Assembly: GCA_001782015.1 (NCBI GenBank)
Contig: MFNJ01000047.1
Span: 13,912 to 74,307, forward strand
Length of the DNA stretch: 60,396 nt
Source of the DNA: Candidatus Levybacteria bacterium RIFCSPHIGHO2_01_FULL_36_15
GTDB taxonomy: Bacteria; Patescibacteriota; Microgenomatia; Levybacterales; GWA1-39-11
Reading direction: 5' to 3'
Shown here piece after piece: positions 419-48,701 of this stretch; positions within the stretch are counted from its first letter, which is position 1; each line of letters starts with the position of its first letter. Position numbers and translations under genes: made by a program. Below the pieces are notes generated by a model. The model saw nothing but the letters and a program-made list of their open reading frames with translations, did no database searches and was not told the DNA's origin.

Positions 419-517
419 TACGACTTACGCATTTTTTGTCATTCTGAATTCATTTCAGAATCCCGCTAGATGCTGAAACAAGTTCAGCATGACGTGTTTT
501 GCGTAAGTCGTATTAAT
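414..517. repeat. Nested palindromic element: 18-bp perfect inverted repeat enclosing a GTCATTCTGAA...TTCAGCATGAC element
   Basis: attaatacgacttacgca (414-431) pairs with tgcgtaagtcgtattaat (500-517); the inner element 438-493 is near-identical to 48631-48686. Confidence 0.85.
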
Positions 518-19246: not shown

Positions 19247-19332
19247 TCTTATGTTTTGGTGAGATTTTTGAAGGGTCAGATCTTTGAATAGCTCTTCTTC
19301 ATAAATCCCTCTGTTTTTGATATACTCTCAAT

Positions 19333-19428
19333 AAAGCTCAAAAGTCAAAGATCAAAGCGCAAAGCCCAACTTAAAGCTAAAAGTTTTTTAGTTTTGAACT
19401 AGGTTTTGATTTTTGCACTTTGCGATTT
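19333..19428. repeat. Inverted heptamer arrays in the leuS leader
   Basis: aaagctcaaaagtcaaagatcaaagcgcaaag ... gttttgatttttgcactttgcgattt. Confidence 0.75.
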
Positions 19429-19463
19429 ACACTAAAACAGTTTGGGATTTCTTAATTAATATT

Positions 19464-22427
19464 ATGGATAAACAATCAGAAGTTAAATATAAACCAACAA
19501 TAATAGAGCCAAAATGGCAGAAGTATTGGGAGCAGAAGAGAATTTATTCTCCTGATTTAGACAAGGCTGCTGAGCCATTCTTCAATCTTATGATGTTTCC
19601 GTATCCGTCTGCTGAAGGTTTGCATGTGGGTAATATGTACGCTTTTACGGGAGCTGATGTATATGCGCGTTTTATGCGCGCAAAAGGATTTGATGTTTTT
19701 GAGCCAATAGGGCTGGATGGTTTTGGAATTCATTCAGAAAACTATGCTCTTAAAGTAGGTCATCATCCAGCGGAGCAAGCAGAGATTTCCCAGAAGAACT
19801 TTTATAGACAATTACGACTTACAGGAAATGCCTTTGACTGGACAAGAACGGTTGAAACCTACAATCCAAAGTACTACAAATGGACGCAGTGGATTTTTAC
19901 TCAAATGTTCAAAAACGGACTAGCGGTCAGGAAAAAGGCAGCAGTAAATTTTTGCCCGTCTTGCAAAACCGTCTTGTCAGATGAACAAGTTGTACAAAAA
20001 TCCGAAATCCGAAATCCGAAATCCGAAACAAATCCAAAATCCAAAATTATAAATTCAAAAATTACAGATATTGAGGAAAGGGTTGCGGTTTGTGAAAGGT
20101 GTGAGACGCCGGTTGAAAAAAGAGATTTGGAACAGTGGTTTTTTAAAATTACAAAATATGCGGATCGGTTATTGAATAATCTTGAAAATCTTGACTGGAC
20201 TGAAAAGGTAAAAATAGCCCAGAGAAACTGGATAGGAAGAAAAGAAGGAATCATAATCAAATATAAAATTCTGAACAGCAAATATGAAGTGGAATGTTTT
20301 ACAACAAGACCAGATACTAATTTTGGCGCTACATTTGTGGTTTTATCTCCTGATAATGCGTTAATAAAAAAAATTCTGAAACCCGCTTCGCAGCGAGGCG
20401 AGCAAGTTCAGGATGACAGAAGAAAGGAGATTGAAGATTATGTTGAAAAAGCAAAGAAAAAGACGGATCAGGAAAGGATGGAGGAGGGGAGAGAAAAAAC
20501 AGGCGTATTTACTGGCCTTTACTGCGTAAATCAGCTCAACAATTATAAAATGCCGCTTTATATTTCGGATTTTGTTTTGATGGGATTTGGAACCGGCGCG
20601 GTTGTGGGTGTTCCAGGGCATGATAAACGCGATTTTGAATTTGCCAAAAAGTTTAACCTTCCGGTTATCCGTGTGGTTGTGGGTTCTGATCATGACAAGT
20701 CTCCGATAACAGATATTAATCAGGTTCAGGAGGAAAATGGTGAGATGATCAATTCAAGCTTTCTTGATGGTTTGGATATTCATCAGGCAACCAATAGAAT
20801 GATGGATTATCTTGAAGAAAAAGGCTGGGGTAAACGTGAAACTACTTATCATCTTCGCGACTGGCTTATTTCCAGGCAAAGGTATTGGGGGCCGCCGATC
20901 CCGATGGTATATTGCCAAAATTGTGCTGACTCTAATCATTCATGGTTTACTTCTAAAAAAGCTCAATCTCACCATCGGGAAAATTCAAAATTCAAAATTC
21001 AAAATTCCAAGCATGAAATGCGTGGTTGGTACCCGGTACCTGACGATCAACTGCCAGTTCAACTGCCTTACATCAAAGATTTTAAGCCATTGGGTACGGG
21101 TAAATCTCCCCTTGCGAATCATCGGGATTTTTATAAAGCAGTTTGTCCTGAGTGTGGTGGAGTAGCTATGCGTGAAACGGATGTTTCAGATACGTTTCTT
21201 GACAGTGCTTGGTATTTCTTTAGATATATCGGGACGGAGTTTGATGAGATTCCATTTCCGTCGGAAGCGTTTGATAATGTCATCCTGAGGAGTGATAGCG
21301 ACGAAGGATCCCCTGACGATTCTGTAAGGCGAATGGGATTCTTCGCTAACGCTCAGAATGACAAAAGCGATAAGGTTCGAGATTCCGCTCAAAGAGCGAA
21401 AAAATGGTTGCCGGTAAACATGTATATAGGCGGGGCGGAGCATGCAGTTTTACATCTTTTATACGCGCGCTTTATGACAATGTTTTTTAAAGATCTGGGA
21501 TATATTTCATTTGAAGAACCTTTCAAGAAATTCTACGCGCACGGCCTTTTAATAAAAGAAGGCGCTAAAATGAGCAAGAGCCGCGGCAACGTAATTGTTC
21601 CGGACGAGTATATACAAAAATATGGTTCTGATACATTACGATGTTATTTGATGTTTCTGGGTCCTTTTGATCAGGGAGGGGATTTTTATGATAGCGGGAT
21701 TGAGGGAATGAGTCGCTTTGTTCGTCGGGTTTGGACTATGTTTACAAATGCAATTGCGGAATCACACCCCCGGGGTGTGCCGCAGGCGCAACACCACCCC
21801 GGGGGTGATATAACTACTCCTCGTCTTGCATTTATGCATAAGACGATCAAAAAAGTGACTGAGGATATCGAGAACCTTCGTTACAATACCGCGATCTCGG
21901 CTTTGATGGAGTGGTACAATTATTTAAGCTCAAATCTCAAAACTCAAAGCGCAAAACTAACAGAAGAAGAAATTATAACATTCTTAAAACTTCTTGCACC
22001 GTTTGCACCGCATATGACGGAAGAAATCTTCCAAAATGTCATCCTGAGGAGCAAAAGCGACGAAGGATCTCATTCTTCAGGGGATTCTTCGGCTGCGCCT
22101 CAGAATGACAACTTGTTTCGATCAATTCACTTAGAACCTTGGCCTGTCTATGACGAGAAATATCTTGAAGAGGAGTTCGTAATTATCGTGATTCAGGTGA
22201 ATGGGAAGAGAAGAGGGGAAATAAGTATTAAGTATCCCTGCTTCGCCAAGGCTTCGCGGGGCAAGCAAATATCAAGTATCCCTGCTTCGCCAAGGCTTCG
22301 CGGGGCAAGCAAATATCAAAAAGAGGTTGAAGAGATGGCGAGAGAGAAAATTCGTAATTTCCTGGAAGGAAAGGAAATCAGGAAAGTGGTTTATGTGCCG
22401 GGGAAGATAGTTAACTTTGTGGTGTAG
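19464..22427 (+). CDS. leuS: Leucine-tRNA ligase (987 aa) with several repeat-derived insertions
   Basis: MFPYPSAEGLHVGN (HIGH), FTTRPDT and GTGAV..VPGHD.RD (editing domain), DWLISRQRYWG, KMSKS, QVNGK. Confidence 0.97.
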   Translation: MDKQSEVKYKPTIIEPKWQKYWEQKRIYSPDLDKAAEPFFNLMMFPYPSAEGLHVGNMYAFTGADVYARFMRAKGFDVFEPIGLDGFGIHSENYALKVGHHPAEQAEISQKNFYRQLRLTGNAFDWTRTVETYNPKYYKWTQWIFTQMFKNGLAVRKKAAVNFCPSCKTVLSDEQVVQKSEIRNPKSETNPKSKIINSKITDIEERVAVCERCETPVEKRDLEQWFFKITKYADRLLNNLENLDWTEKVKIAQRNWIGRKEGIIIKYKILNSKYEVECFTTRPDTNFGATFVVLSPDNALIKKILKPASQRGEQVQDDRRKEIEDYVEKAKKKTDQERMEEGREKTGVFTGLYCVNQLNNYKMPLYISDFVLMGFGTGAVVGVPGHDKRDFEFAKKFNLPVIRVVVGSDHDKSPITDINQVQEENGEMINSSFLDGLDIHQATNRMMDYLEEKGWGKRETTYHLRDWLISRQRYWGPPIPMVYCQNCADSNHSWFTSKKAQSHHRENSKFKIQNSKHEMRGWYPVPDDQLPVQLPYIKDFKPLGTGKSPLANHRDFYKAVCPECGGVAMRETDVSDTFLDSAWYFFRYIGTEFDEIPFPSEAFDNVILRSDSDEGSPDDSVRRMGFFANAQNDKSDKVRDSAQRAKKWLPVNMYIGGAEHAVLHLLYARFMTMFFKDLGYISFEEPFKKFYAHGLLIKEGAKMSKSRGNVIVPDEYIQKYGSDTLRCYLMFLGPFDQGGDFYDSGIEGMSRFVRRVWTMFTNAIAESHPRGVPQAQHHPGGDITTPRLAFMHKTIKKVTEDIENLRYNTAISALMEWYNYLSSNLKTQSAKLTEEEIITFLKLLAPFAPHMTEEIFQNVILRSKSDEGSHSSGDSSAAPQNDNLFRSIHLEPWPVYDEKYLEEEFVIIVIQVNGKRRGEISIKYPCFAKASRGKQISSIPASPRLRGASKYQKEVEEMAREKIRNFLEGKEIRKVVYVPGKIVNFVV
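21278..21363. repeat. Palindromic element TGTCATCCTGAG...CTCAGAATGACA inside leuS (copy 1)
   Basis: Terminal inverted repeats; translates as VILRSDSDEGS...FFANAQND. Confidence 0.88.
22037..22110. repeat. Palindromic element TGTCATCCTGAG...CTCAGAATGACA inside leuS (copy 2)
   Basis: Same termini as copy 1; translates as VILRSKSDEGS...SSAAPQND. Confidence 0.88.
22230..22317. repeat. Perfect 44-bp tandem duplication inside leuS (30-nt hairpin element plus two AA[AG]TATC heptamers)
   Basis: aagtatc-cctgcttcgccaaggcttcgcggggcaagc-aaatatc occurs twice. Confidence 0.92.
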
Positions 22428-23226
22428 CAACGTCTCGATTTGCCGGAACAAGTATCCTGTATTCTAAATCTTCCGATTCAGAGTTTTCTATTCCCATGGG
22501 GATACAGCCGAGTTTATAAATTTCCATCAGCGGAATAAACGGGTTGCCACTCTGAAAACCCTTTTTGGCGAATAAATCTTTCCGGTCTTCCAGCAATGTC
22601 CATGTGCAGCCATCGGTAAAAGTACGAATAGCACCTGTTTCCCAAAAAATCTCATCATTAGATATATGACGTGTATTTTGAACTATGGAATTAAAAGTAG
22701 AATCGTGTGCAATTTCCCGGATGATTCTTTTCTCTTCAACTCTGTTGCTGATTTTTGCTACAGTATCAATCGCGTTTGCAACTTTACTATAAACTGTACG
22801 GATCATATGTTCCCATTTTCCAGGTTTGATACCTAGATCAGATTGAAAAACTACAGGCACAGGAGGTTTATTAAGCCGTGATAAATATTCATTAACTAAG
22901 TATGTGAGATTTTTTTCGTTTGCGTCAGCTTGGGGCACAGCCCATTTGACAGAGCCGATTTGCGATATAATTTGGGCCAGTTGGTCCGAATTTGGAAATT
23001 GTAATCTCCAGAGACAATCGGTCCAGAAGTCTTTTTGAGCCTCGGCAGGGTATGCTTGAAGTTTTACTGCGATTTCAGGAAGGCAGGTGTATTTTCCGGG
23101 ATCTTTTGATTTAGGCCATTTATTAGTTTTTTCAGGAAAAGATATTCCGGAAAAATGAAGATCCAATGATTCTTTCGCGATCCTTTGTCTTTCACCGGGC
23201 TTTGATAGTCTTTCTGCTGAATTCAT
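22411..23226 (-). CDS. Hypothetical protein, convergent with and overlapping the leuS 3' end
   Basis: ~271-aa ORF with TTGACT/GATACT promoter-like sequence upstream. Confidence 0.65.
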   Translation of the reverse strand: MNSAERLSKPGERQRIAKESLDLHFSGISFPEKTNKWPKSKDPGKYTCLPEIAVKLQAYPAEAQKDFWTDCLWRLQFPNSDQLAQIISQIGSVKWAVPQADANEKNLTYLVNEYLSRLNKPPVPVVFQSDLGIKPGKWEHMIRTVYSKVANAIDTVAKISNRVEEKRIIREIAHDSTFNSIVQNTRHISNDEIFWETGAIRTFTDGCTWTLLEDRKDLFAKKGFQSGNPFIPLMEIYKLGCIPMGIENSESEDLEYRILVPANRDVATPQS

Positions 23227-48606: not shown

Positions 48607-48701
48607 GTTATTTCAAAACCTCCGTTTCTTGTCATTCTGAACTTGTTTCAGAATCTCAGAAGATGCTGAAATGAATTCAGCATGACAGGTATTGAAATAG
48701 G
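48607..48701. repeat. Nested palindromic element (GTCATTCTGAA...TTCAGCATGAC inside an outer IR, flanked by heptamer arrays)
   Basis: Inner 48631-48686 matches 438-493; outer tatttcaaaacct/aggtattgaaata. Confidence 0.85.

Follow-up and report, generated by a model that had tools for sequence, protein, structure and literature searches.

In-frame repeat insertions in the leucyl-tRNA synthetase gene of a Candidatus Levybacteria genome and their probable origin from one modular repeat family

Introduction

How can the only gene for an essential enzyme take up one repeat element after another and still be read from end to end? The question is raised by leuS, which encodes the bacterial-type leucyl-tRNA synthetase (LeuRS) of Candidatus Levybacteria bacterium RIFCSPHIGHO2_01_FULL_36_15 and lies at 19464..22427 on the forward strand of a 60,396-nucleotide stretch of that genome (contig MFNJ01000047.1, positions 13,912 to 74,307). 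This whole stretch (G000:C47:13912-74307 in our numbering, with G for genomes, C for contigs, L for loci and P for proteins) is called the window, and coordinates given without a contig refer to it.

The original prediction, made from the letters alone, had described at least eight repeat insertions in leuS that preserve the reading frame, and had taken them for several unrelated miniature elements that either create new peptide loops or are removed at the RNA level. Here the inserts were compared with orthologous genes, with the rest of the genome and with other assemblies, and the protein was modelled. In our reading, to which we give a probability of about 0.75, leuS has been colonised repeatedly by one modular, non-autonomous repeat family, and the inserts are translated as mostly disordered loops.

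Results and Discussion

The leuS gene and its length-variable sites

The genome (G000) is a 60-contig draft of 1,371,446 bases with 91.7% completeness and 35% G+C, and a genome search gave only one match for leuS. The open reading frame (ORF) starts with TTG at 19413 or ATG at 19464 and ends at 22427; counted from the ATG, the protein has the predicted 987 amino acids (aa). All domains of a class Ia bacterial-type LeuRS were found, namely the Rossmann-fold class I catalytic domain (PF00133 and PF09334), the CP1 editing domain (PF13603, 1.9e-57) and the anticodon-binding domain (PF08264). The closest solved structure is that of Thermus thermophilus (1h3n, E 1.6e-197). The alignment to it falls into six blocks, and the breaks lie exactly at the flagged segments: LeuRS-side gaps are at aa 179-212, 308-317 (within block 2), 489-520, 602-642 and 857-890, and the last block contains about 22 surplus LeuRS residues.

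The catalytic motifs had been predicted to be intact. KMSKS (aa 702-706) is indeed so; the HIGH signature (~19617-19628, aa 52-55) reads H-V-G-N and in this matches the consensus of 27 relatives. Several relatives from the neighbouring family f2 (G023, G024, G025, G028) retain H-V-G-H, and most members of the own family have H-V-G-N.

For the comparison with orthologues, leuS was extracted from 26 related genomes and aligned (27 sequences with G000, alignment A1). In a second comparison the 39 nearest database homologues were aligned; the nearest named ones are labelled Candidatus Levybacteria, Levyibacteriota or Patescibacteria. All eight flagged segments fall at length-variable (indel) sites among the orthologues, and six of them are lineage-specific in sequence. 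Repeat analysis located every one of the predicted repeats in the gene, with the 44-nucleotide (nt) units of the last one at 22215-22302.

Anatomy of the inserts

Insert 1 (19998..20090, aa 179-209; like all following ones on the forward strand) begins as (AAATCCG)4, which decays to AAATCCA and AAATTCA until about 20063. It occupies the loop that joins two cysteine pairs, CPSC and CERC, and its heptamer-coded stretch reads KSEIRNPKSETNPKSKIINSK. The 3' part is an older extension of a beta arm ('..EERVAV') before CERC that is common to several homologues; the heptamer part is unique. The insert is missing in 26/26 other leuS genes, one of which (G029) has a short, different insert, and among the 39 nearest homologues the site has the short form in 30 and other inserts in nine. 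Fold analysis gave no RNA structure for insert 1.

Insert 2 (20373..20417) is a hairpin, ATTCTGAAAC..AAGTTCAGGATGAC, which reads ILK..QVQDD in a variable loop of the editing domain. Its own loop holds a nested GC-rich hairpin of 21 nt (20383-20403) that reads PASQRGE (aa 307-313). The site reads ILKQ(V/I)QDD in P0003, P0007 and P0013, and G000 adds exactly seven residues inside. A similar composite with 88% identity over 42 nt is found at C58:18930-18968. The fold energy of the insert is -16.3 kcal/mol (z -2.3).

Insert 3 (20980..21007), detected in the scan for period-7 arrays, is an (AAAATTC)4 array reading NSKFKIQNSK. It forms the tip of a segment that varies throughout the clade ('SWFT...', aa 489-520, nt 20928-21023). 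The unit AAAATTC is also arrayed in the genes for MreB, a Mur ligase, PBP2 and a glycosyltransferase, and in relatives the insert 3 site is filled by other sequences coded by heptamers or hairpins.

Inserts 4 and 7 are both copies of a family with the ends TGTCAT..ATGACA, here TGTCATCCTGAG...CTCAGAATGACA. Insert 4 (21278..21363, aa ~604-632) is an 86-nt palindrome that reads VILRSDSDEGS...ANAQND and is nested within an older variable insert after 'PFPS'; its fold energy is -32.7 kcal/mol (z -3.9). Insert 7 (22037..22110, aa ~859-883) has 74 nt, reads VILRSKSDEGS...APQND and folds with -36.2 kcal/mol (z -5.5). The left halves of the two are 91% identical over 35 nt, and the final 13 nt are identical.

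Insert 5 (21763..21807, aa ~766-782) consists of two CACCCC/GGGGTG palindromes of 13 nt, CACCCCCGGGGTG and CACCCCGGGGGTG, at 21765-21777 and 21795-21807. They are 100% complementary, form one strong hairpin (-33.5 kcal/mol, z -4.2) and are read as HPRGVPQAQHHPGG. This site too is length-variable in orthologues, and relatives have heptamer plus hairpin inserts there.

Segment 6, the CTCAAA run (21927..21958, aa ~821-828), consists of four imperfect TCAAANC heptamers reading NLKTQSAK, and related arrays occur elsewhere in the genome. It lies at an indel of 6-7 residues that is present in about 12 of the 27 orthologues, and it was modelled within a helix (807-828) with high confidence scores of 81-95. 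It is probably an old insertion of three heptamers (21 nt) that is now built into the helix.

Insert 8 (22215..22319, aa ~925-946) is a tandem duplication with two 44-nt units (22215-22258 and 22259-22302, 89% identical) and a partial third. Each unit is composed of two AARTATC heptamers and a GC-rich module of 30 nt, and the units are translated in different frames, as KYPCFAKASRGKQ and SIPASPRLRGASK, with a net gain of 22 aa. The insert was found neither in the 26 other leuS genes nor in the 39 nearest homologues, and a single 44-nt unit forms only a weak hairpin (z -0.7).

One nested, modular system in genes and between them

The TGTCAT family has 21 paired copies of 58-129 nt in the genome, all of which end in 12-nt terminal inverted repeats, TGTCATYCTGAG / CTCAGRATGACA, as they are known from MITEs, miniature transposable elements with inverted repeats. 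With at most one mismatch the terminus TGTCATCCTGAG has 24+22 matches in the genome vs 2+3 for the reversed control. The original prediction had proposed to count the families in coding and intergenic DNA, and this was done, by means of ORFs, for the TGTCAT copies and the perfect heptamer arrays. ORFs of at least 281 aa hold five of the 21 TGTCAT copies (leuS twice, a GT4 glycosyltransferase, a DUF6390 protein and an ORF without Pfam family). As stop-to-stop ORFs cover 78% (at least 200 aa) or 90% (at least 100 aa) of the genome, the TGTCAT hairpins are depleted in genes. On average only 1.24 of the six frames of a copy are open. Across the phylum the pattern was present in 47 of 401 sampled genomes, and the reversed control in none.

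The heptamer arrays behave differently. The genome has 16 perfect period-7 arrays with at least three units, vs 4, 2, 0 and 0 for periods 5, 6, 8 and 9. All units are A-rich, with AAANNTC variants in 15 of the 16 arrays and AAATCCG in the remaining one, insert 1. Fifteen of 16 arrays sit in ORFs of at least 316 aa, and heptamer arrays are therefore not depleted in genes. The A-rich strand is always the sense strand, and the encoded peptides are of the type NSKFKIQNSK or SSKFKVQSSK. Three AAANNTC units in antisense orientation cannot stay open, because the antisense strand contains TGA and a 7-nt unit cycles through all frames. Besides leuS, 12 ORFs host such arrays, every one with a Pfam family; among them are MreB, a Mur ligase, PBP2, RecJ, MiaA, YchF, Trp/TyrRS, two glycosyltransferases, a 5'-3' exonuclease, a DnaX-like clamp-loader subunit and a UvrD/nuclease protein. 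Period-7 arrays were also present in 10 of the 27 related leuS genes (15 arrays, vs 2/0/0 for periods 5/6/8). Of 80 further leuS loci, six had them (7 arrays), and periods 5, 6, 8 and 9 gave no array in these 80.

A gene for a GT4 glycosyltransferase (G000:C17:26153-27538, L045) contains two heptamer arrays and a 93-nt TGTCAT element and is multiply colonised like leuS.

Related families had been predicted in the intergenic DNA of the window, and they are there. A two-hairpin element of the GTCATYCTGAA type, GTCATTCTGAA..TTCAGAATC..GATGCTGAA..TTCAGCATGAC, lies at 437..494, nested in a larger palindrome, and a second copy of the same family is found at 48630..48687; insert 2 corresponds to the right-hand hairpin of this family. 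No ORF of at least 50 aa spans either of these two elements.

The view that the elements are unrelated to each other had to be given up. A Levyibacteriota relative (L066, protein 48% identical) has the insert 2 hairpin at the corresponding place in leuS, but lacks the nested 21 nt. A further copy of the 30-nt module of insert 8 lies within an (AAAAATC)n array at C17:11436-11473, and another at C44. The array of insert 1 is 89% identical over 36 nt to one flank of a PF05635 gene (23S_rRNA_IVP, a family of four-helix bundles) at C15:1347-1730 (locus L039, 1277-1748; 59.8 bits). This gene, the sole copy in the genome, lies between two protein ORFs and has a heptamer array at either end, the two being inverted to each other (1277-1325 and 1710-1748). 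In addition, GC-rich hairpins occupy the same loop position at C58 and in composite TGTCAT copies of 119 nt, and in the leuS locus of another relative (L062) two or more complete two-hairpin elements are inserted in frame, where G000 has inserts 2 and 4, with further termini of this family elsewhere in the locus. Heptamer arrays and hairpins are one nested modular system and not unrelated elements. Six of the inserts come from its dispersed families.

Reuse of sites and the question of function

The leuS sites are used again in relatives, where different heptamer- or hairpin-coded inserts occupy them. For insert 7 the same element type is found at the identical nucleotide position in leuS of G000, G030 and G023, and at the same protein site in P0003. 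G030 has 11 copies of the TGTCAT family; the exact pattern finds no copy in G023, where the element in leuS is degenerate. This recurrence may mean that an old insertion has disappeared in many lineages, or that insertion is targeted to this specific site.

The leuS gene of G003 (L009) has a stretch of about 23 residues (SSSKYQVLSKKEEILN.KY.IHN) at two sites, a repeat inserted twice in frame. At the N-terminus of the LeuRS of G024 and G025 (L017, L015) a GC-hairpin-coded insert reads ...SAKASAGKQ and ...AASRGKQ, respectively. About 11 residues of the motif KYxPSxIEPKW are duplicated on its two sides, which may be a long target duplication.

An element that returns to an exact position could be one that is useful there. 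The inserts could act as functional loops for a partner, the tRNA or the surface, as signals in DNA or RNA (pausing, hairpins for mRNA stability), or as a switch by heptamer slippage. The shared position of insert 7 in G000, G030, G023 and P0003 speaks for such an adaptive role, as do the identity of the inserts across the assemblies of a 90% protein cluster, the confident helix into which segment 6 is now built, and a cluster member (P0123) in which a change in unit number shifts the frame. However, the hot spots of relatives hold unrelated sequence or nothing, and therefore no sequence is conserved; the inserts are modelled as disordered, and the hosts are many unrelated housekeeping genes. 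A slippage switch would shut off the sole leuS, which would be lethal, and the contigs show no copy-number variants, although contigs drop rare variants. We therefore regard an adaptive function as unlikely. The inserts are presumably tolerated rather than useful.

Translated loops or segments removed from the RNA

The protein was modelled with AlphaFold2 from the 27-sequence alignment, which gave a mean predicted local distance difference test (pLDDT) of 80.6 and a predicted template modelling score (pTM) of 0.77. Values below 50 were obtained for insert 1 (aa 183-190 and 192-204), insert 4 (611-632), insert 5 (770-780), insert 7 (868-882) and insert 8 (926-948), and outside the inserts only for residues 1-4 and the KMSKS loop (700-708). 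Inserts 2 and 3 have a pLDDT of 64-70. The low-confidence segments are modelled as coil, which fits exposed, disordered loops. The prediction of in-frame miniature elements in an essential single-copy enzyme was borne out, at positions that vary among orthologues and are modelled as low-confidence coil.

Every one of the seven inserts (segment 6 being left aside) has a length that is a multiple of three, and all their 147 codons are free of stops, for which the probability from their own composition is about 7e-4. In the alternative frames five of the seven contain stops.

This bears on the second possibility of the original prediction, that the inserts are taken out after transcription, with hairpins directing their excision and the mRNA being joined again, or are skipped by ribosomal bypassing, which would leave a mature LeuRS of about 840 aa. 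Four inserts indeed fold strongly (z -3.9, -5.5, -4.2 and -2.3), and heptamer arrays related to those in leuS flank the PF05635 gene, which is of a type found in rRNA intervening sequences. These sequences are cut from rRNA by RNase III without rejoining. An excised sequence needs neither an open frame nor a length of 3n, yet 147/147 codons are stop-free and in frame. In addition, the heptamer inserts have no RNA structure, the arrays in genes are in the stop-free orientation in 15 of 15 cases, and the region has no match to an Rfam intron or other family: a scan of 19300-22600 with E up to 1 gave only a chance match to a miRNA (E 0.52). Removal at the RNA level is very improbable on these grounds, and translation of the inserts is the reading that we prefer.

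Reality of the sequence in other assemblies and strains

Repeats of this kind could also have been threaded into leuS by assembly or binning, or the gene could be a decaying pseudogene. De Bruijn contigs break at each of the leuS repeats, the genome is a draft of 60 contigs with 91.7% completeness, one assembly has a collapsed 44-nt unit, and the left edge of insert 1 is unbridged among the contig pieces listed. leuS was, however, present in 11 DNA metagenome runs from eight studies, and contigs of four runs from four studies match it with 0 differences. They run across the right edge of insert 1 and across the junctions of inserts 2, 3, 4 and 7. The junctions of insert 4 are bridged by contigs covering 20981-21363 and 21334-21792, and those of insert 7 by contigs covering 21883-22110 and 22082-22259.

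The 90% protein cluster has 11 members (NCBI, ENA, JGI), ten of which were aligned. The inserts are unchanged wherever they are covered, except in P0123, and nine near-identical gene calls from independent assemblies agree. Length differences in the cluster are start-codon calls, save for P0123, and there is one divergent patch. Against a pseudogene, the frame of 987 codons is open through seven insertions in the sole leuS of the genome, and the motifs are conserved. An artefact or a pseudogene is thus hardly credible.

In two bins with heptamer arrays the summed depth is 15,384 and 4,607 vs a baseline of about 10-40. Because this is hundreds of times the baseline, the leuS heptamer arrays are shared by many other contigs of the community. 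One relative has a contig without insert 1. Candidates for joints of population variants were set aside, since other organisms or repeats had given rise to them (their short sides measure 21-34 nt, with 88% likeness).

The divergent patch lies at 21677-21762 of the window, just upstream of the CACCCC palindrome, where a second strain has 20 differences in 86 nt (FFDTG...LFAKAIMQT). This strain was seen in runs X2, X4 and X5 and in P0122, P0124, P0126 and P0127, and it is near-identical elsewhere. The patch resembles a recombination tract that stops at the palindrome.

Mobility and the proposed course of colonisation

The genome encodes three Y1 transposases (226-256 aa) resembling REP-associated tyrosine transposases (RAYTs, after repetitive extragenic palindromic elements, REP), at C36:42915-43682, C32:4707-5384 and C55:13953-14630, and one IS200-like TnpA (148 aa) at C30:11244-11687, all with PF01797. 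The Y1 gene at C55 is flanked by its own, different REP-like hairpins, and the arrangement of a REP/REPIN-RAYT system with the leuS elements was not found. Other transposase matches are DDE at two loci and one weak rve. A candidate autonomous element at C55 was rejected: its distant pair of termini, 830 nt apart, encloses a tRNA-like stretch and a hydrolase ORF. This is the only distant pair, and no long element with TGTCAT ends was found in the genome.

We propose that the elements are built from (AAANNTC)n heptamer arrays and short hairpin modules, the latter being TGTCAT..ATGACA palindromes, the two-hairpin GTCATYCTGAA family and GC-rich hairpins of 21-30 nt, and that hairpins would insert into each other's loops and into heptamer arrays. 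In genes, only those inserts would survive that hit a permissive, variable surface loop, have a length that is a multiple of three and offer a stop-free sense frame. The survivors would then pass into mRNA and protein together with the rest of the gene and form extra loops, hydrophilic and for the most part disordered, leaving the catalytic, editing and anticodon-binding cores intact. Insertion may proceed by a reaction on single-stranded hairpin loops, or by template switching or slippage during replication, with slippage or switching for the arrays. Two observations are leads to this mechanism, the 21-nt hairpin exactly in the loop of another hairpin and the one element at an identical position in several genera.

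A number of points weigh against repeated colonisation by one such family and against translated loops. The predicted count of at least eight in-frame repeat insertions is solid for six only. Insert 5, the CACCCC palindrome, had no second copy in the G000 genome in repeat searches, and segment 6 is an older indel shared by about 12 of 27 orthologues; it is ordered and common to relatives, and therefore not a recent insertion. Translation of the inserts is something that we infer from the sequence, and the low pLDDT may partly reflect a thin alignment at lineage-specific columns rather than a surface loop. The second histidine of the HIGH signature is, as the gene is read, an asparagine. As to mobility, no target-site duplication was found at the flanks of the 21 TGTCAT copies, and GTCATYCTGA termini are absent within 350 nt of all four PF01797 genes. 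None of the contig pieces listed bridges insert 1 at its left junction (19900-20017). P0123 has only one 44-nt unit (window 22215-22319), which leads to a frameshift and a truncated C-terminal domain; either the tandem repeat collapsed in the assembly, or the allele is real and presumably defective. Lastly, a search for an empty-site allele among 5.8 billion proteins gave nothing between the own 90% cluster and 57% identity. There is no close empty site, the un-nested insert 2 of L066 is the only comparison of this kind at the DNA level, and the insertions cannot be dated.

If our reading is right, an essential single-copy enzyme of a bacterium with a minimal genome can bear about 150 additional codons that stem from repeats, spread over seven sites. 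Besides point mutation and domain fusion, invasion by repeats would then be a source of new protein loops in bacteria of the candidate phyla radiation (CPR), and it would account in part for the unusual differences in length among CPR housekeeping proteins. The repeats also have practical consequences, as they break short-read assemblies inside genes and can make false frameshifts (P0123), and low-complexity insert segments confuse annotation and structure prediction.

A wider hypothesis is more speculative, and we consider it possible at best. Patescibacteria, and perhaps other phyla, might harbour a single undescribed modular system of mobile DNA, made up of A-rich heptamer arrays, loop-inserting hairpins and an occasional PF05635 gene. 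It might spread via a reaction on single-stranded hairpin loops, for which the RAYT-like Y1 transposases are possible catalysts, and the same permissive loops of essential proteins would be reused in independent lineages. Such a system could be a main source of lineage-specific insertions in the unusually long and variable housekeeping proteins of the CPR, with some old insertions, like segment 6, built into folds.

Comparison with known repeat systems

Elhai and colleagues reportedly described in 2008 cyanobacterial short tandemly repeated repetitive (STRR) heptamer repeats with nested small dispersed repeats (SDRs). The likeness to these is one of architecture and not of compared sequence: G000 has an excess of period 7, and hairpins are embedded in arrays and in each other. 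The units differ, being A-rich (AAANNTC) in G000 and not G-rich. Location differs as well. According to PMC4692102, heptamer simple sequence repeats (SSRs) of Xanthomonas and Nostoc are over-represented in non-coding and under-represented in coding DNA, whereas 15 of the 16 arrays of G000 are in genes and in sense orientation.

The Rickettsia palindromic elements RPE-1 to RPE-10 (Ogata et al., 2000, 2002) are, in the summary given by PMC10969869, selfish repeats found in frame in housekeeping genes, and their translation is proposed there to be compatible with the protein fold. Like them, the elements described here are small dispersed palindromes in a reduced genome with in-frame copies in unrelated housekeeping genes (21 copies, five in ORFs). 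However, they are found in Patescibacteria, measure 58-129 nt vs about 100-150 bp for RPE, have no single conserved peptide per family, and are modular, mutually nested and combined with heptamer arrays, with seven or eight packed in one gene. Because host, size and architecture differ, we do not file them as members of RPE; they are likened by behaviour and not by sequence. Intragenic ERIC and BOX elements, which the same summary treats, are a further system for comparison (PMC10969869).

With MITEs and with REP and REPIN elements (pairs of REP sequences), for whose mobility DDE transposases or RAYT (Y1) transposases are responsible, the TGTCAT..ATGACA copies share terminal inverted repeats, small size, high number and the ability to form hairpins, and the genome encodes Y1 transposases; they differ in having neither a target-site duplication nor an autonomous partner with the same ends that could be found. 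The likeness to rRNA intervening sequences (PF05635) is limited to the gene at C15 with its inverted heptamer arrays, one of which resembles insert 1. That copy lies between protein genes and not in 23S rRNA, the leuS inserts carry no gene, and excision by RNase III would destroy the mRNA. No description of such elements in CPR bacteria or Patescibacteria was found in a literature search whose scope excluded subscription journals and supplements. From this comparison the kind of element, in-frame repeats like RPE, appears to be known, and its occurrence and modular form in Patescibacteria appear to be new.

Extra domains in related leucyl-tRNA synthetases

Many related LeuRS proteins (995-1235 aa) carry extra domains within the region of the editing domain. 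These are an insert of about 190 aa that resembles alpha/beta-hydrolases and, in some, an additional Nudix-like insert. They were seen at the leuS loci L031, L032, L035, L004, L005, L034 and L022 (G001, G012, G018, G002, G013, G005 and G016, respectively). Further cases are L036 and L037 (G010, G015) and the proteins P0099, P0106, P0109 and P0009. The precomputed Pfam assignments of the database for LeuRS with extra domains are PF12697, PF00561, PF06821 and PF00293.

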